DNA of 64,000 nucleotides from Bacillota bacterium (GTDB lineage: Bacteria > Bacillota_I > Bacilli_A > RF39 > UBA660), in NCBI GenBank assembly GCA_015059485.1, contig SVAH01000005.1:621-64620 (forward strand), written 5' to 3'. This document shows positions 5,270 to 16,444 of this stretch, piece by piece. Position 1 is the stretch's first letter. The number at the start of each line of letters is the position of its first letter. The translations under genes were made by a program, and so were the position numbers. The notes beneath the pieces were generated by a model, which saw only the letters and a list, made by a program, of their open reading frames with translations, did no database searches and was not told the origin of the DNA.

Positions 5270-7372
5270 ATGTTTGATATGAATAATGAAGAAGAAGAAA
5301 ATGTTTTAGAAAAGTATGGACGTAATATTATCGAAGATGTAAAAAAAGGAAAAATTGATCCAGTTATTGGACGAGATGAAGAGATAAGAAGTATTACAAG
5401 AATACTTTCTAGAAAAACAAAAAACAATCCAGTTTTAATTGGTGAACCGGGTGTAGGTAAAACAGCAATTATCGAGGGATTAGCACTTAGAATTGTACGT
5501 GGAGATGTTCCAAGTTCTTTAAAAGATAAAACTATTTGGGAGTTAGATATGGCTGCTTTAATTGCGGGTGCTAAATATCGTGGTGAATTTGAAGAAAGAT
5601 TAAAAAAAGTTCTTAATGAAGTTAAGAAAAGTGATGGGGAAATCATCATGTTTATTGATGAAATCCACACTATAGTTGGGGCTGGTAATACTGAAGGTGC
5701 TATGGATACTTCAAATATTTTAAAACCAATGCTTGCTCGTGGAGAAATTCATGTAATTGGTGCAACAACATTAAATGAATATAGAAAATATATTGAAAAA
5801 GATGGAGCGCTTGAAAGAAGATTTCAAAAAATTAAAGTGTCAGAGCCAACAGTTGAAGATACAATTACTATACTTCGTGGATTAAAAGAGAGATTTGAAG
5901 TACATCATGGTGTTACTATTTCAGACAAAGCACTAATATCAGCAGCAACATTATCTAATAGATACATTACAGATAGATATTTACCTGATAAAGCAATAGA
6001 TTTAGTTGATGAAGCGTGTGCAACTATAAGAGTACAAATGGATAGTGTACCAACTAGTTTAGATGCACTTACACGTAAAATTATGAGACTTGAAATAGAG
6101 AAACAAGCAATAAAGAAAGAAAAAGATGAATTATCTAAGAAAAGATTAGAAGATATAGAAACTGAGTTAAAAGATTTAAAAGAAAAAGAATCTAAATTAA
6201 AAGAAGATTGGAATAGAGAAAAAGATATTATTAATACAATAAAAACTAAGAAAAAAGAATTAGAACAAGCTAAATTTGATTTAGAACAGGCTGAAAATAC
6301 TTATGATTTAGAAAGCGCAGCAGTTCTTCGCCATGGTAAAATACCAGAGTTAGAGAAAGAAATAACAGAACTAAAACATAAAGATGAAACAAAACTTTTA
6401 AGTGATAATGTTGATTCAAATGATATAGCTAAAGTAATATCTACATGGACAAATATCCCAATATCTAAATTAATAAGCAGTGAAAAAGAAAAATTATTAC
6501 ACTTGGAAGAAAATATGAAAAAAAGAGTAATGGGTCAAGATGAAGCTTTAAAACTTGTATCAGATGCAATTTTAAGAAGTAGAAGTGGAATTAAAGATCC
6601 TAATAAGCCTATTGGATCATTCATATTCTTAGGACCAACTGGAGTAGGAAAAACAGAAGTAGCAAGAACACTTGCATATGAGTTATTTGATGATGAAAAA
6701 CATATGATTAGAATTGATATGTCTGAATATATGGAAAAATTTTCAACTGCTCGTTTAATTGGAGCTCCTCCAGGATATGTGGGATATGAAGAAGGTGGAC
6801 AATTAACTGAAGCAGTAAGACGTAATCCTTATTCAATAGTGTTATTTGATGAAATAGAAAAAGCACATCCTGAAGTATTAAATTTACTTTTACAAATACT
6901 TGATGATGGTAGAATTACAGATTCTAATGGTAGAACAGTAGATTTTAAAAATACTATTATTATAATGACATCCAATGTTGGAAGTGAACATATATTAGAT
7001 GGAGAAGATGAAAAAGTTTTTGATGAATTAAAAAAATATTTTAGACCAGAATTTATAAATCGTATTGATGAAATAATATTATTTAATAAGTTAAATAAAG
7101 ATTCTATTAAATTAATATTAGATAAGATTATTAAAGATATTGAATTTAGATTAAAAAATTCTGATATAAAAATAGAACTTACTGATGCTGCAATTAATTC
7201 TATGATAGATGAAGGCTATGATATTAATTTTGGCGCAAGACCATTAAAAAGACTTGTAAGTAGAATAATAGAAACTAATTTGTCAAAAATGATAATAGCC
7301 GATGAAGTTAAATTTGGAAGTATCATAGAAATTGATTATCAAAATAATAAGTATATATTTAAAGTAAAATAG
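5270..7372 (+). CDS. clpB: ClpB chaperone lacking the N-terminal domain
   Basis: two AAA+ modules ([16 protein letters not shown]), coiled-coil M domain, GYVGYEEGG; sequence begins just before the conserved LEKYG. Confidence 0.93.
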
Positions 7373-7782: not shown

Positions 7783-7891
7783 TGAGTGGTAAAAGAATGA
7801 TTGAAAATATTTGAAAAACATTTTTATGAAAAAATAGTAAAATGATAGATTATAATTGAATCTATCATTTTTTGCTTTATTATTATGTAAT

Positions 7892-7941
7892 AAAAAAGTC
7901 GAACTATAAAAGTTCAACTTAAATTTCAAATGGAGCGGGTG
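7892..7941 (-). repeat. tRNA-Gly-like 3' end (CACCCGCTCCA) plus terminator hairpin; copy 1 of an imperfect ~45-bp repeat
   Basis: minus strand: CACCCGCTCCA-N13-TTGAACTTTTATAGTTCGA-CTTTTTT; similar to 10925-10970. Confidence 0.7.
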
Positions 7942-8193
7942 GTTAAGTTATTTACAACTTTTCCATCACAATTAGGGATTGATACTTTTATCACAAATCT
8001 AGTTAGTTGCAACGAAAAAAGTTAAATTTAATAACTGCACTGAAGAAATTAGAAGTAATAAATACTAGTCTATTTAATTACATCTTATTCCTTTATAATC
8101 ATATTTTTTCAAATATATATTTTTAGAATTTATGATTATAGTTAATTGACTTTAAAAAGTAAAATATTATATAATTCATATGGAGGTAAAGAT

Positions 8194-8763
8194 ATGGAAA
8201 GAAAAAGAATTGAGATTGAAGCAAAATTTCCTTTACATAACAAAAAAGAAACAATATCAAAATTAAAAGAATTAGGTAAAACAATTGAAGAAAACAATTA
8301 TCAAAAGGATATATATTATACACCAGCACATGAGAATTTTCTTGAAAGAAAACCTATTTCAGAATGGCTTAGAATAAGAGATACAAAGGAAGAAAAAACT
8401 ATTAATTACAAAAATTGGAGTAATAATAATGGTAATAATAAAATTTCTTGTAAAGAAATTGAAATTGGAATAGATGACTATAATGGAATGATTGAAATGC
8501 TAAATGCACTAGATTTCAAGCAAATAATAGTTGTTGAAAAAACAAGAAACTCATTTGAATATAATAATATTGTTATATCCATTGATTCTATAGAAGATTT
8601 AGGTGATTTCATCGAATTAGAATTCAAAACAAATTTATATGATAATGAAGATGATAGCATGAAATACATTATGGATATTGTAGAAGAATTAAATATTAAA
8701 GTTGGTGAACAAGTATTTGCTGGATATCCTCAATTAGTAATGGAAAAAAAGAACTGTGTTTAA
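8194..8763 (+). CDS. CYTH-domain protein (class IV adenylate cyclase/CyaB-like)
   Basis: EIEAK N-terminal ExExK motif, QKDIYY, WLRIR, VEKTR, IDSIEDLGDFIELE and GYPQL; GGAGG SD before ATG 8194. Confidence 0.9.
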   Translation: MERKRIEIEAKFPLHNKKETISKLKELGKTIEENNYQKDIYYTPAHENFLERKPISEWLRIRDTKEEKTINYKNWSNNNGNNKISCKEIEIGIDDYNGMIEMLNALDFKQIIVVEKTRNSFEYNNIVISIDSIEDLGDFIELEFKTNLYDNEDDSMKYIMDIVEELNIKVGEQVFAGYPQLVMEKKNCV

Positions 8764-8777
8764 AAACACAGTTTTTA
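8752..8777. terminator. bidirectional terminator between the convergent CYTH and phosphorylase-fold genes
   Basis: AACTGTGTT…AACACAGTT hairpin flanked by A and T tracts. Confidence 0.7.
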
Positions 8778-9812
8778 TATATCCATCAAGCAATTTCCTA
8801 TTGTCTTAATTAATTTTTTTCTTTTAATTAGGACATCTTCTTTTCTTTCATTAGATAGGTCCTCTGAGAATTTTTTTGATAAATTGTCAGATATAATATG
8901 TAAATATGAATAATCAATTCCATTTTGCATTGCTGATTTAGCCATATGACCAATCTCTGGATCAACAAATGCAATTTCTTCCCTATTTTGTAGAACCCAT
9001 TCCTTTGTTTCTTGAATTATACTAGGTAATGTATAATGAATACCATTCTTGATAGCATCAGAATTAAAATCTTCAAATACATTGTTCCATTCAACAAAAC
9101 TACCATCAATAAATATACTTTTATTTCCTGTAGCAATTGTCTCATTTGGGGCATAGTTTTTATTTAATGTTCCAAGTTTTCCTACATATATAACTTTTTT
9201 TACGCCTTTTCGTGCTAAAGCGGCAACAATATAACCAGCAATATCTCCCCAGTAACTATGCTTACAACCAACTAATATTTTATCGTCTGTTATTCGCTTC
9301 CACAAAAAATCTCCTGTCCCAAGCCAATTTTCTGTATTAGACAAATACTCAAAACCTTGAACATATCCTAATATTATTGTTTTACATTTTGGTATCTCAT
9401 TTATATTAGAGCTCATTAATTTATTTTCAATTTGTTGAACTGTAGGAAATTGTACTGTAATTTTCTTTTTTATTCCTAATATAGCTAAATATGTTTTTAC
9501 TAGACTTGCATAATGATATACATAATCCATACCAGGATAACAATTAATTGTTGCAACAGCACCATTCACAAAAACTGTTGGTCGCTTATAATTGAAAGTT
9601 TTATCATTTTTTTCTTTAACAGAAATACCTTTAGTTCTATCATAATTACCTACAACACGTATTTCTGATATTGAATCACTAAAGATTATATCTTGTAATT
9701 TCATTTCAATATATTTTTCAAGTGATTGACCCATCGAATGGTTTTCAAAAGTTGCCATTGTATAACCTAAATCAACTATACTACTGTAATCTATTCCGTG
9801 ATAATCAAACAT
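8775..9812 (-). CDS. nucleoside phosphorylase / AMP nucleosidase-fold protein with an N-terminal extension
   Basis: C-terminal half has HSYWGDIAG, VIYVGKLGTL, VDPE (cf. VxME) and IISDN, the PNP/UDP/MTAN superfamily pattern. Confidence 0.65.
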   Translation of the reverse strand: MFDYHGIDYSSIVDLGYTMATFENHSMGQSLEKYIEMKLQDIIFSDSISEIRVVGNYDRTKGISVKEKNDKTFNYKRPTVFVNGAVATINCYPGMDYVYHYASLVKTYLAILGIKKKITVQFPTVQQIENKLMSSNINEIPKCKTIILGYVQGFEYLSNTENWLGTGDFLWKRITDDKILVGCKHSYWGDIAGYIVAALARKGVKKVIYVGKLGTLNKNYAPNETIATGNKSIFIDGSFVEWNNVFEDFNSDAIKNGIHYTLPSIIQETKEWVLQNREEIAFVDPEIGHMAKSAMQNGIDYSYLHIISDNLSKKFSEDLSNERKEDVLIKRKKLIKTIGNCLMDI

Positions 9813-9823
9813 TTAAAATCCCC

Positions 9824-10720
9824 CTAACATAATTTTATTTTTACAATACATCCCTCTAATTCTTTAGTATCATAAATTACAAAATCATTATTTGATTTTA
9901 TTACTAGAAAAGTTCCAATAACGTTCGCTATTTTACCATATATACTATCATAATGCAACAAATAGTTAATGTCATATATGTTTTCAATATTATCCTCAAG
10001 AAGAGATAACTGAATATCATTTGCCGAAAAAATACTTTTATTTATTTTATTAATTTTTTCACAATAATTAATTTCGGGAGAAATTAAAAATTTTTTCAAA
10101 GTATCAGGAATGTCATTCATAATATTGTTGTAATGTTTTTTTAAAATATTTTCAATTTCGATTCGATCCTTATCAATTACTAAATTCTTCAATTTAAATG
10201 ATGAATTTACTTGAAGTACATATCCTAATTTTGATATTGTATGTTCAATAAATCTTGCTTGTTTACCATCTGGTGTTTCTGCAATAAACATTGATGCTAT
10301 AGCACCTTGTTCAAGTATTCTTGAATATTTTCTATATTCTGCAGCTGTCCCAACCTTAAATTTATTATTTCCAAACAAAGCTATATACACAACATGTTTT
10401 TGATTACAAAATTCTTTTGCAATACTATTAGTAGTTCTGCAATATTTACCATCACATCCAAGACATTCATTAAATCCAGTAATATTTGAACATGTTTCAC
10501 ATTGTTTAACATTATCTGACTTACAACTATTAAAATTTGGACATACAACATATTTATGTGTAACTAAATCATAATAACCATTACATTTTTTAAGACCTTC
10601 TTTTTTTATATCTATAATTCCTTCAGCCTTTTTGTATTCAATAATATTGTGTTCATAATCATATAAAATAAAATTTGGAATATTATTTATCCATTTTATT
10701 CCTTTAAATTGTCTTAACAT
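9824..10720 (-). CDS. DUF2797-like protein (Cys cluster plus HxxYxA…KVG…R..EQGA)
   Basis: CP…QCETC…C.GC…C…C Cys cluster followed by HVVYIALFGNNKFKVGT and RILEQGA. Confidence 0.7.
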   Translation of the reverse strand: MLRQFKGIKWINNIPNFILYDYEHNIIEYKKAEGIIDIKKEGLKKCNGYYDLVTHKYVVCPNFNSCKSDNVKQCETCSNITGFNECLGCDGKYCRTTNSIAKEFCNQKHVVYIALFGNNKFKVGTAAEYRKYSRILEQGAIASMFIAETPDGKQARFIEHTISKLGYVLQVNSSFKLKNLVIDKDRIEIENILKKHYNNIMNDIPDTLKKFLISPEINYCEKINKINKSIFSANDIQLSLLEDNIENIYDINYLLHYDSIYGKIANVIGTFLVIKSNNDFVIYDTKELEGCIVKIKLC

Positions 10721-10866
10721 AACATCACCCAAACCAATTATAATTATACCATTTAAATATAATATATATAAATTTTTAACAAATATAATTCAATTTTTTT
10801 ATCAATAATTAAATAAACTTAAAACATATTATAACATTATATTTATTTTCAATTTAATTATTTCTG

Positions 10867-10900: not shown

Positions 10901-10924
10901 ACATTTTGTTAATTACTTTTTTAT

Positions 10925-10970
10925 AAAAAAATCGAACTATAAAAGTTCGAATAAAATCAATCTGGAGCAA
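10925..10970 (-). repeat. tRNA-Gly 3' end (TTGCTCCA) plus terminator hairpin; copy 2 of the repeat
   Basis: minus strand: TTGCTCCA-N12-TCGAACTTTTATAGTTCGA-TTTTTT; the 8 nt equal the 3' end of the tRNA at 12571. Confidence 0.7.
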
Positions 10971-11097
10971 TTGTGTATCTCGTTTGAGAAACAATTACCG
11001 ACAAATGCAATGAGATAAAACTTAATTACATATTAAATATATCACATTATAGGGAAAGAGTAAATAACATGAAAATGATATTTAGATAAAATAGTGA

Positions 11098-11419: not shown

Positions 11420-12346
11420 ATGGTATTAATTGAAAACACTCAAGAAAATGGTTATACAGATCTATTATTAGAAATAAAAGAGTTTTATAATCATATTATA
11501 GATGAAACAATAGAATTAATGAACTTATATGGTTGTAGTACACCACTTGAAATATACTGTTTATTTAATTTGATAAATAGCTTCTATGTTAAAGATGATG
11601 AAATATTTAATCTTTTATATATGAAAGATAAACCAGTTTATTCTAAAGAACTAGAAAATGATGAAATAAAAGGAGTTCAAGTGCTTTTAAATGGTGGCGT
11701 ATGTCGACATAGATCAGCAATGTTAAATGATATATATAAGAGAATGGGTATTGATTCTGTTATTCTTGCTGGACGCTCAGAAACACTTTTAAATTTTCAT
11801 TATGGAAATTCATTAAACAAACAAATAGCAGATAGAGTTTATGTTGAAAATATGCTAAGAAAAATATCTGAAGGGGCAAGGATTGAAGAATTTAAAAATA
11901 ACTTAAAAAAGAGAAAAATATCATATCATATTCAAGATGTTCATGATGACTATTTTGATAAACATAAAAAAAGGCCTAATCATGCAATTGTTATGGTTGG
12001 TGATAATAAAAGATACTATTTAGATCCAATGAATAATGTTACCTATTATAAAGATGATAGAGATGTTGTAACATTACGAAATCGTTCTGGGCTTTATTTC
12101 TTTTCATCTCCTCAAATTAATAAATTCTTTTGGGGGTGCTGGTTAGGCAAAAATCAAGAGTTAGTAGAAACATATGATAGAATTCTTCAATTACCAAGTG
12201 TTATTGAATCTGAAACTATACAAAATATTAAAGAAATATATTCATATTTAAAACAATTTAAAGAAGACATAGAAGAATTTACAAAAAGCAAATCAGACTC
12301 TATTGAAGAAACTAGAAAAAAATGCTTAACTTTACCAACAAAGTAG
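11420..12346 (+). CDS. transglutaminase/papain-like cysteine-triad protein
   Basis: GVCRH…MGI, NHAIV and YLDP give a Cys-His-Asp triad in TGase-like spacing; own extended -10 promoter and terminator. Confidence 0.65.
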   Translation: MVLIENTQENGYTDLLLEIKEFYNHIIDETIELMNLYGCSTPLEIYCLFNLINSFYVKDDEIFNLLYMKDKPVYSKELENDEIKGVQVLLNGGVCRHRSAMLNDIYKRMGIDSVILAGRSETLLNFHYGNSLNKQIADRVYVENMLRKISEGARIEEFKNNLKKRKISYHIQDVHDDYFDKHKKRPNHAIVMVGDNKRYYLDPMNNVTYYKDDRDVVTLRNRSGLYFFSSPQINKFFWGCWLGKNQELVETYDRILQLPSVIESETIQNIKEIYSYLKQFKEDIEEFTKSKSDSIEETRKKCLTLPTK

Positions 12347-12570: not shown

Positions 12571-12645
12571 TGGAGCAAGTGAGGAGGATCGAACTCCCAT
12601 CTCAACCTTGGCAAGGTCGTATACTAACCATTGTACTACACCTGC
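12571..12645 (-). tRNA. tRNA-Gly (GCC)
   Basis: GCAGGTG/CACTTGC acceptor stem, anticodon arm CGACC-TTGCCAA-GGTTG, GTTCGA T-loop, encoded CCA. Confidence 0.97.
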
Positions 12646-15464: not shown

Positions 15465-16322
15465 TTAATATCTATTTTTTTTAATTCTTTTATTTATGAA
15501 TTCTTCAATATATTCAAATTCAATATTAGTATTTATTAATTTATCTACATCTTCATAGTCTATTTTTCCTTTATAGAAATCTTGATAATAGTCTTTGAGT
15601 TCAAATGGCTCATCAAAGAAATCTATCATATCTTGATTAAATAAAAATTCTAGAGTTAAACATGAAATACCAAATGTAGAGTCGTAATAGTATGTTTCAT
15701 TAAAACTTTCAGTATATGCAGTGCTTTTGCCATCTAAATCTATAATAGTAGGTTCTAATTTAAAATCAATAATTATATTATTATGTTGATGATCAGAATC
15801 TATTTTATTATATAAATCATATGGATAGATATTATTAGCAATTAATTCTTTAAATTTCATTAATATCTTTTGTATAATTATTAATTTTTTCCTTTCGGGT
15901 AAAAATTTAAAAAAGTCAATCGGAATATTAGGCCTACAATTTTTTAAAATACATCCTCTAAAAGAATTATCTATGTAACATGGAGCAAGTGGAAGATATG
16001 TTAAATTAATTTTTTCTTGTTTAATATTAGCCATTTCAATTAAATCTTTATATCCTAAACGTAAACCTTCTTCGTTGTAACATCTTGATTGAAATTTGAA
16101 AGTATTAATAAATTTTTGAGGCTTATCTGTTTTTATTATTTCATCATTTGATGACTTAATGTTAGATTGAGGTAATTTATATAATTTTAAAAGTAAATTT
16201 TTGTTTATTCTATATACATTGGCATCAGTGCCTTTGCCAATTATTTTTAATTTACTTACTTGATTAGAATTTAAATTTGAAAAATGCATTGCTTCATTTC
16301 TTAAAACATCAATATTTTTCAT
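15465..16322 (-). CDS. divergent protein kinase-like protein
   Basis: IIGKGTDANVY Gly loop, LLKLY, YPYDLY…NNIII catalytic-loop-like segment, IIDLDG; GGAGG SD before ATG 16322. Confidence 0.7.
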   Translation of the reverse strand: MKNIDVLRNEAMHFSNLNSNQVSKLKIIGKGTDANVYRINKNLLLKLYKLPQSNIKSSNDEIIKTDKPQKFINTFKFQSRCYNEEGLRLGYKDLIEMANIKQEKINLTYLPLAPCYIDNSFRGCILKNCRPNIPIDFFKFLPERKKLIIIQKILMKFKELIANNIYPYDLYNKIDSDHQHNNIIIDFKLEPTIIDLDGKSTAYTESFNETYYYDSTFGISCLTLEFLFNQDMIDFFDEPFELKDYYQDFYKGKIDYEDVDKLINTNIEFEYIEEFINKRIKKNRY

Positions 16323-16444
16323 ACAGTTACCTCCAGTTAATGCATATAATAGCATAAATAATATTTAAATTAAATATAATAATATAAAATGATTTTGTGT
16401 TTGATTGTAAATTGAGATATAATTAAAAAAAAGGATGTGATATT

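Follow-up and report, generated by a model that had tools for sequence, protein, structure and literature searches.

The window analysed here is the whole 64,000-nt stretch of a Bacillota bacterium genome (GCA_015059485.1, contig SVAH01000005.1, positions 621 to 64,620; host DNA of about 25% G+C), in which three intact genes lie between clpB (5270–7372) and a tRNA-Gly(GCC) gene. A 189-aa CYTH protein, i.e., a triphosphate tunnel metalloenzyme of the type annotated as 'class IV adenylate cyclase', is encoded on the plus strand (8194–8763). The minus strand encodes a 345-aa protein from an as yet unannotated family with the NP-I (PNP/MTAN) fold (8775–9812), referred to below as PNPL, and a 298-aa DUF2797-family protein (9824–10720). 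All three open reading frames (ORFs) were found at the positions given in an earlier note on this DNA. Our analysis indicates that the cassette is a rare 2.5-kb accessory unit moving horizontally among gut and rumen bacteria, and that PNPL, as judged from its predicted structure, represents a branch of the NP-I fold that had no annotation before.

The gene arrangement proposed in the earlier note was confirmed. The DUF2797 gene and PNPL form one operon, with 11 nt from the DUF2797 stop to the PNPL start, and the CYTH gene converges on it; a hairpin search placed a candidate shared terminator (8752–8773) between the convergent stop codons. That the homologues of the DUF2797 protein begin with MLRQFKG supports the ATG at 10720, and not the TTG at 10732, as its start. 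Promoter-like sites, recognized by consensus match only, precede both transcription units: TTGACT-18-TATAAT, matching at 11 of 12 positions, 5′ of CYTH (8146–8175, plus strand), and TTTATA-18-TATAAT with a TG element 5′ of the operon (10743–10772, minus strand).

Mobility and possible insertion site of the cassette

The three genes are flanked by two repeats of 54 nt each (7871–7924 and 10904–10957), which are 80% identical, and between them no further ORF of at least 60 aa was seen except overlapping spurious ones. Repeat A (7871–7941, minus strand) comprises a terminator-like hairpin (7896–7920) and an 11-mer similar to a tRNA 3′ end (7931–7941; TGGAGCGGGTG on the plus strand), which is placed 5′ of the hairpin on the minus strand. 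Repeat B (10904–10973, minus strand), located by repeat, hairpin, and 11-mer searches, has its hairpin at 10932–10950 and its 11-mer at 10963–10973 (TGGAGCAATTG). Both 11-mers resemble the 3′ end of the tRNA-Gly(GCC) gene (12571–12645, minus strand), which reads TGGAGCAAGTG on the plus strand. The 25-nt core of the terminator occurs at only two sites in the window, namely repeats A and B, and the pattern TGGAGCRRKTG, picked post hoc, was counted four times against 0.03 expected, one copy being the tRNA-Gly 3′ end.

The earlier note had described these genes as exactly filling the interval between two tRNA-end repeats, and the locus as a tRNA-integrated island. The identity of the repeats and the lack of any other real ORF between them agree with the first statement, and the tRNA-like 11-mers and the duplicated terminator are non-random; however, the repeats are short, only about 11 nt of each resemble a tRNA end, and no integrase ORF is present. 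These flanks can plausibly be described as decayed, att-like scars at a site of recurrent insertion. An empty site was not recovered from genomes of the same genus: in one of them (G003) the tRNA-Gly gene and LtaS are present and the genes past the tRNA are unrelated, and the contigs of two others (G004, G002) stop there. On the 5′ side of the tRNA, a fourth 11-mer, an exact match to TGGAGCAAGTG, is found at 15981–15991 inside a minus-strand ORF (15465–16355), by chance or as a scar. Between repeat B and tRNA-Gly there is a lone 308-aa ORF (11420–12346, plus strand) with no match in Pfam, NCBIfam, PADLOC, or the PDB, which may represent a further small islet sharing this insertion site.

Four other genomes (loci L007, L071, L018, and L009) carry the cassette at 70–96% DNA identity with unrelated flanks. 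The genes thus co-occur elsewhere as a unit in differing chromosomal contexts, a point on which the earlier note had made its proposal depend, and the absence of PNPL from 60 of 60 host relatives agrees with an accessory cassette. In the related strain with the most similar copy (L007, 96% identical) the cassette also lies near a tRNA-Gly gene, which adjoins the CYTH side and not the DUF2797 side, and a copy of repeat A is present at 81% identity. The same locus (L007:2955–4042) contains a 980-nt insert with its own ORF between CYTH and the repeat, surrounded by direct repeats of about 60 nt.

Predicted folds of the three proteins

PNPL is poorly reached by sequence searches. Its match to PF01048 (14.6 bits, E = 0.022) covers residues 253–328 only and misses the 25.1-bit cut-off, for which reason PF01048-based surveys miss the family. 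There was no match in NCBIfam, PHROG, or PADLOC, and no PDB sequence relative was found by phmmer or with the family profile. The AlphaFold (AF2) model, in turn, is of high quality (predicted local distance difference test score, pLDDT, 94.7; predicted template modeling score, pTM, 0.93) and shows a three-layer alpha/beta/alpha NP-I fold. Compared with the PDB by Foldseek, it gave 663 matches at E ≤ 1e-3, the best of which were PNP, MTAN, UP, and futalosine hydrolase (E of about 1e-10, probability 1.00, target-normalized template modeling score, TM(target), 0.6–0.69), with 10–19% identity over about 236 aligned columns. The PNP fold assigned in the earlier note is thus corroborated by structure prediction. 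MtnN, DeoD, futalosine hydrolase, and AMP nucleosidase appear as the closest structural matches in these model comparisons (TM(target) up to 0.69), and the order of the motifs is shared with NP-I enzymes (Gly-rich loop, xGxxGxL, x-x-E, and SD). Yet enzymes of the MtnN/DeoD type serve housekeeping functions and are nearly universal; PNPL belongs to a rare, mobile family and has 'VDPE' in place of 'VxME'.

An alignment of 38 PNPL homologues contains 42 invariant columns, and the conserved motifs are HSMG, EKxDKxFNxxRPT, PGxDY, GCKHSYWGD, GKLGTL, PNExxATG, VDPEIGHMA, HIISDN, and DLSNER, of which DPEIG, ISDN, and SNER are invariant. The 'VDPE' replacement reported in the earlier note is shared by the 38 homologues, in which D284-P-E-I-G288 does not vary. 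We mapped the catalytic region and the N-terminal extension by manual motif matching to the canonical PNP of the host. DPEIG appears to fall at the site of the ribose-binding xxME motif and ISDN (H-x-x-SD) at the catalytic SD site, the invariant E286 and D309 having a constant offset of +92/+93 from GAEMES and AVDSK of the host PNP. Since hhalign of the PNPL profile with the host PNP aligned just 50 columns, around VGKLGTL, this mapping rests on motif order. By the same matching, the N-terminal excess is about 110 aa, composed of some 64 aa before the first PNP-type motif and an insertion of some 47 aa before the glycine loop, and not the extension of about 140 aa given in the earlier note.

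The extension holds invariant or near-invariant basic residues (K38, R59, K68, K71, and R77), which are consistent with phosphate binding, while the phosphate-binding Arg residues of DeoD appear to be absent from the PNPL sequence. Taken together, these two features lead us to infer that PNPL may be a hydrolase-type N-glycosidase with a phosphorylated substrate.

The CYTH protein is a clear member of its family, with 88.8 bits against the 23.2-bit cut-off of PF01928 (E = 5e-25), and it also exceeds the 58-bit cut-off of TIGR00318 (class IV adenylate cyclase) with 104 bits. It shares with SaTTM (Saci_0718), CyaB, and YpAC-IV the ExExK motif (here EIEAK, residues 7–11), a full-length CYTH domain, and a size of about 190 aa. 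By sequence, it appears to be nearer to the non-cyclising SaTTM (E = 7e-12), its nearest solved relative, than to the Yersinia pestis cyclase (E of about 3e-5 to 8e-5). SaTTM hydrolyses triphosphates and makes no cyclic nucleotide (PMC8233210). The earlier note had left open whether the CYTH enzyme makes or hydrolyses (cyclic) nucleotides and triphosphates; the cyclase side is weakened by this relationship. A hydrolytic role is more likely than a signalling one, because NUDIX or Ppx/GppA domains stand in for CYTH elsewhere, as described below.

The third protein matches DUF2797 (PF10977; E = 3.8e-13, 50.2 bits against a 25-bit cut-off), as do 26 of 26 aligned homologues. Its AF2 model (pLDDT 89.9) comprises an N-terminal beta domain, a central core, and a C-terminal beta domain. 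Four invariant Cys residues (C46, C60, C74, and C77) form a predicted C4 zinc ribbon. The core has beta-beta-alpha-beta-alpha topology (strands 109–116 and 120–127, helix 128–138, strand 142–149, and helix 152–163) with invariant Y112, K122-V-G124, R130, R134, and E159. Nothing useful was obtained from NCBIfam, PHROGs, or PADLOC, a match to SIR2 in the latter (E = 0.005) being spurious. The best match in BFVD was non-significant (E = 5e-3), and the weak matches were enriched for GIY-YIG, T5orf172, and MUG113 proteins. A 2026 preprint has proposed a cryptic GIY-YIG fold for the DUF2797 family. The nuclease activity of the protein, suggested by its modeled core, is treated here as a hypothesis.

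Distribution and gene partners of PNPL

The PNPL profile retrieved 613 cluster representatives, 473 of them at E ≤ 1e-10, among 1.84 billion, and 67 loci in 185,579 species genomes. The hosts belong to Bacillota, Cyanobacteriota, Patescibacteria, Chlamydiota, Planctomycetota, Bdellovibrionota, Deinococcota, Actinomycetota, and archaea. Conservation is high: members found as far apart as Firmicutes, Cyanobacteria, Patescibacteria, and a fungus are 40–50% identical. The fungal homologue (P0118, Dothistroma septosporum NZE10, 334 aa) is 43% identical to the PNPL of the window over 92% of its length and may reflect transfer between domains of life. PNPL genes are also carried on Streptomyces plasmids and, as distant homologues, on Klebsiella plasmids. 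No match to PNPL was found in 50,697 GenBank phage records or in IMG/VR; by these searches PNPL appears to be a cellular and not a viral family. A phage origin of PNPL and DUF2797 was discarded, as neither GenBank phages nor IMG/VR gave a match.

We clustered the ORFs of 72 loci, annotated the representatives, and built a PNPL tree. Partner sets follow PNPL clades, with 12 label changes compared to 37 with shuffled labels. The clade of the window comprises seven rows (support 100/99), all of which have a convergent CYTH gene, and five of which have DUF2797. DUF2797 is dispensable to the cassette, since two members (L097 and L102) hold PNPL and CYTH only. The genes 5′ of PNPL in L091 (313 aa) and L102 (360 aa) were considered as DUF2797 candidates and ruled out; the 313-aa gene is likewise unrelated to the partner of cyanobacterial PNPLs. 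In two cyanobacterial genomes (L002:490–1290 and L010:6000–6818, Nostoc/Cyanobacteriota), a predicted membrane protein of 266–272 aa, for which no family match was found, is encoded directly 5′ of PNPL.

CYTH adjoins PNPL in four lineages: the Bacilli/Clostridia clade, Streptococcus, Patescibacteria (in the order CYTH-PNPL-ExoIII), and marine archaea. Elsewhere other phosphate-processing proteins are found, with NUDIX fused N-terminally to PNPL in Moranbacteria and Bdellovibrio-like genomes, and Ppx/GppA fused C-terminally in Chlamydiae-like genomes (PNPL::Ppx/GppA(::DUF952)). A Nocardiopsis cluster contains PPDK-like, dTMPK-like, PNPL, DUF2797, HIT, and APH genes, and some PNPLs are single-gene, keeping the N-terminal region. 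Almost all partners make or break nucleotide 5′-phosphates, and it is mainly on this basis that we propose a nucleotide, rather than a nucleoside, as the probable substrate of PNPL.

Several further neighborhoods were recorded. In Streptococcus the order is CYTH-nucleotidyltransferase (NTase)-PNPL-pyruvate-kinase-like-dTMPK-like, the NTase being of the Pol-beta type. In S. orisasini (L003:1–8811) and Streptococcus sp. (L016) this operon is preceded by Rgg, CPBP protease, ABC exporter, and PqqD genes, possibly as a quorum-regulated pathway to a nucleotide-derived product in a culturable genus. A recurring set in three loci (L034:147–4513, L072, and L019) has PNPL followed by an alpha/beta hydrolase, a ThiS-like protein, a polyprenyl-synthase-like protein, and a ThiF-type E1. 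On the Klebsiella pneumoniae IncFIB plasmid NZ_CP055107.1 (L099:7007–10493), a PNPL homologue of 26% identity is the first gene of an operon with a DMT transporter, NUDIX, and a DegT-type aminotransferase, surrounded by insertion sequence elements and several toxin-antitoxin pairs. Similar matches occur on further Klebsiella and Raoultella plasmids.

Proposed function of the cassette and alternatives

We tentatively favor a reading of the cassette as a mobile accessory module for conflict, by which a purine nucleotide would be broken down, CYTH acting on the triphosphate, PNPL on the glycosidic bond, and DUF2797 on nucleic acid. PNPL would cut the base off a purine (deoxy)nucleotide. CYTH would handle the 5′-triphosphate, either before PNPL, by converting a nucleoside triphosphate (NTP) to the monophosphate (NMP), or after it, on a ribose-5′-triphosphate product. 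The DUF2797 zinc-ribbon protein, with its GIY-YIG-like core topology, would bind or cut nucleic acid. The role would most likely be conflict with phages or other mobile DNA, in which the nucleotide pool is depleted or edited.

The genomic contexts that fit this conflict reading come from the sister clade of the window's clade (support 97/94), which consists of single-gene PNPLs. One of these is placed beside BrxA/B/C (BREX; L013), another beside ImmA and SNF2-methylase-ResIII (L017), and a third beside AbiEi/Eii and an OLD-TOPRIM ATPase-UvrD pair of Gabija type (L095). Others are cargo of a conjugative element or integrative and conjugative element (L091) and of an integrase/MobL element (L093). 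A precedent for the chemistry is provided by CBASS and Detocs, in which effectors of PNP fold are known to cleave ATP (Rousset et al., bioRxiv 10.1101/2023.01.24.525353). In these systems Cap17/DtcC (type III CBASS, Detocs) use an NP-I (PNP_UDP_1) fold on phosphorylated nucleotides, and the N-glycosidic cleavage depletes the pool during infection. PNPL is similar to them in being accessory, in having defence-island members, and in having eukaryotic (fungal) homologues. The two nevertheless differ: PNPL would be a parallel to these ATP nucleosidases with unrelated sequence, an N-terminal addition of about 110 aa, and no SLOG/SAVED domain, and its partners are CYTH, NUDIX, Ppx/GppA, kinases, DUF2797, and DpdA3, not a CD-NTase or a two-component system. 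In about 85 loci no CD-NTase, Detocs kinase or phosphotransfer protein, pAgo, or NLR was seen beside PNPL. The earlier note had pointed to PNP-fold effectors such as that of Detocs; PNPL is not detectably an effector of the Cap17/DtcC type, no PADLOC family being matched at E ≤ 0.1.

Several observations weigh against the conflict reading. None of the three proteins matched a system model in PADLOC-DB v2.0.0 (at E ≤ 0.1 for PNPL), and the cassette matches no known defence system. Its flanks are housekeeping in four of the five genomes (ruvAB, EssC-like/amidase, pepE/yfiH, and clpB) and not defence islands, and some single-gene PNPLs also occupy ordinary contexts. In other clades the partners of PNPL are kinases, i.e., enzymes that add phosphates instead of taking them off, or transporters, or 7-deazaguanine synthesis genes; a biosynthetic or metabolic role would suit such partners more than a depleting one. 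No evident sensor or regulator is present that would hold a nucleotide-destroying enzyme silent, and the substrate assignment is guilt by association. For DUF2797, similarity to the UvrC and homing GIY-YIG domains was not detected by hhalign (probability 0.1%), and Foldseek against the PDB returned nothing at E ≤ 1e-3. An assignment to GIY-YIG by similarity was rejected on these hhalign and non-significant Foldseek results, and only the topology-level resemblance was retained.

The contexts are thus mixed. To the earlier note, homologues in housekeeping salvage operons would have spoken against an undescribed defence system; we found several housekeeping-looking, transporter, and DpdA3 contexts, but the sister clade lies in defence and mobile ones, beside BREX, AbiE, Gabija-like, and SNF2-methylase-ResIII genes. 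Given these mixed contexts and the absent PADLOC match, we consider defence as one plausible reading and not a demonstrated one.

A different view of PNPL is offered by its links to 7-deazaguanine. In about 20 genomes of Nonomuraea-type actinomycetes the order FolE-QueD-QueE-(277 aa)-PNPL-dTMPK-like-DUF2797-methyltransferase is found, plus NUDIX. The 277-aa protein matches phrog_20335 and CGPG_00065 of Cellulophaga phage phiST. The latter is DpdA3, of a transglycosylase family tied to complete replacement of deoxyguanosine (dG) (Cui et al., 2023, PMC10516641). In two PNPLs (P0155 and P0168) a DpdA3-like domain is fused to the protein, with about 250 residues aligned to the DpdA3 family at an hhalign probability of 98.7–99.1%. 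In marine archaea such a fusion is followed by CYTH. When compared with the phage DpdA3 modules (phage phiST and Campylobacter phage CP220; PMC10516641), the actinomycete and archaeal PNPLs are thus adjacent or fused to DpdA3-type proteins, and FolE/QueD/QueE, a nucleotide pyrophosphatase, and a gene similar to deoxynucleoside monophosphate (dNMP) kinases accompany PNPL. On the other hand, DpdA3 phages are without PNPL or DUF2797, and the window cassette and its host are without DpdA3 or deazaguanine synthesis genes.

One such cluster is located on NZ_CP107821.1 (L100/L101), the 132.6-kb circular 'plasmid unnamed2' of Streptomyces sp. NBC_00536, which has portal, major capsid, and ParAB genes and encodes a 5,247-aa helicase-family protein. 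The replicon also carries QueD-QueE-FolE-DpdA3-like-PNPL-thymidylate kinase-DUF2797-methyltransferase and two NUDIX genes, and it is probably a phage-plasmid with 7-deazaguanine-modified DNA. The chromosomal actinomycete clusters were not accepted as prophages, as the portal and capsid proteins of this replicon had no match in their 7-kb flanks.

Phage T4 reprograms the nucleotide pool by means of the dCTPase gp56, the dNMP kinase gp1, and the GIY-YIG endonuclease II. By analogy, the actinomycete clusters may resemble this arrangement, in that both would group three activities (NTP pyrophosphatase, dNMP kinase, and a nuclease of GIY-YIG type) around an enzyme of base replacement. In contrast, the T4 type is a phage system without an N-glycosidase.

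According to the explanation that follows from these links, the cassette would be a reduced piece of a pathway for modified nucleotides of the 7-deazaguanine type. PNPL and a polyphosphate hydrolase would clear or recycle canonical guanine nucleotides, letting the replacement base take over, and DUF2797 would cut unmodified DNA in the manner of T4 endonuclease II, the window copy being a remnant or served in trans. The joining of PNPL, DUF2797, FolE-QueD-QueE, and the DpdA3-like 277-aa protein in actinomycetes speaks for it, together with the DpdA3-like::PNPL fusions, one of them beside CYTH, and the cluster on a Streptomyces replicon with portal and capsid genes. The host itself provides little of such a pathway: the metagenome-assembled genome, which is 74% complete, gave no DpdA3-like match and QueC only below the cut-off, and does not hold a DpdA3 module by these matches. 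Moreover, the surroundings of the cassette are free of deazaguanine genes in all five carrier genomes, the DpdA3-linked PNPL clades are separate from that of the window, and PNPL is absent from every phage collection searched. We consider this explanation unlikely, though still worth bearing in mind.

Alternatively, the cassette could be useful cargo without an immune role, i.e., a sanitising, detoxifying, or salvage module that dephosphorylates and deglycosylates a toxic or non-canonical nucleotide (for instance a purine nucleotide with damage, or a nucleoside antibiotic that has been phosphorylated) or salvages bases. In four lineages a transporter gene adjoins PNPL, of the ABC type in Streptococcus, the MFS type in Trueperaceae and L103, and the DMT type on Klebsiella plasmids; house-cleaning is the classical task of NUDIX and HIT enzymes, which are among the partners, and several contexts look like housekeeping. 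The small-genome host depends on salvage and has Tgt and not QueC. Such a role is difficult to reconcile with a family as rare and patchy as this one (67 of 185,579 species, 0 of 60 relatives) and with PNPLs in defence islands or mobile elements. In addition, the host already encodes a canonical PNP, and a zinc-ribbon protein with a predicted nuclease-like core fits salvage poorly. We regard the sanitising explanation as rather unlikely, and the plain salvage role, which the earlier note had raised as an alternative, is unlikely too. Enzymes with PNP/MTAN chemistry protonate N7 through a conserved Asp and do not cleave 7-deazapurine nucleosides. This Asp/N7 chemistry, unsuited to 7-deazapurines, argues against queuosine salvage, which we set aside as a main reading for this reason and for the absence of PNPL from the 60 relatives of a Tgt-positive, QueC-negative host.

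A scheme of cyclic-nucleotide signalling by CBASS/Pycsar logic is improbable. In it, CYTH would act as a genuine cyclase of class IV and make a cyclic nucleotide (cNMP) on infection, and the PNPL extension would sense the cNMP and trigger the nucleosidase. The TIGR00318 score above cut-off, the detectable relationship to the Y. pestis cyclase structures, and the conservation of the additional N-terminal region of PNPL are compatible with such a scheme. Yet the fused NUDIX or Ppx/GppA hydrolases replace CYTH elsewhere, the nearest solved CYTH relative is a non-cyclising triphosphatase, and single-gene PNPLs retain the N-terminal region with no cyclase nearby.

Most improbable of all is a part in a nucleoside- or nucleotide-derived secondary-metabolite pathway, as might be suspected from the Streptococcus operon (with its NTase and kinases behind Rgg, CPBP protease, ABC exporter, and PqqD genes), from acidobacterial and verrucomicrobial PNPLs adjoining FAAL/PKS genes, and from the Nocardiopsis cluster with its PPDK-like, HIT, and APH genes, because the three genes of the 2.5-kb cassette provide no function for building a scaffold, tailoring it, or exporting a product, and biosynthetic genes are missing from all four other contexts of the cassette.

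A bolder proposal, to which we give a low probability, would unite the conflict reading with the DpdA3 contexts, PNPL being an unrecognised pool-editing class. In stand-alone CYTH-PNPL(-DUF2797) cassettes and as a single gene, it would form a new anti-phage system in which a purine (deoxy)NTP loses its triphosphate and then its base, and a zinc-ribbon nuclease attacks DNA. Where it is fused to DpdA3 or adjoins it, it would show that the complete exchange of guanine for 7-deazaguanine by DpdA3-type enzymes takes place in the free nucleotides, ahead of replication, instead of in DNA. The fusion and adjacency of PNPL and DpdA3 bear on how DpdA3 phages replace 100% of guanine, a question left by Cui et al. 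(2023).

PNPL is highly conserved, yet it has been missed by sequence searches of Pfam, NCBIfam, PHROGs, PADLOC, and the PDB, and the family is present in cultured Nonomuraea, Nocardiopsis, Streptomyces, and Streptococcus. Its CYTH, NUDIX, and Ppx/GppA partners hint at processing of ribose-5′-triphosphate or NTPs, and DUF2797 would gain its first functional context. If PNPL depletes nucleotides in defence, it would represent a second, independent PNP-fold solution to the theme known from Cap17/DtcC.

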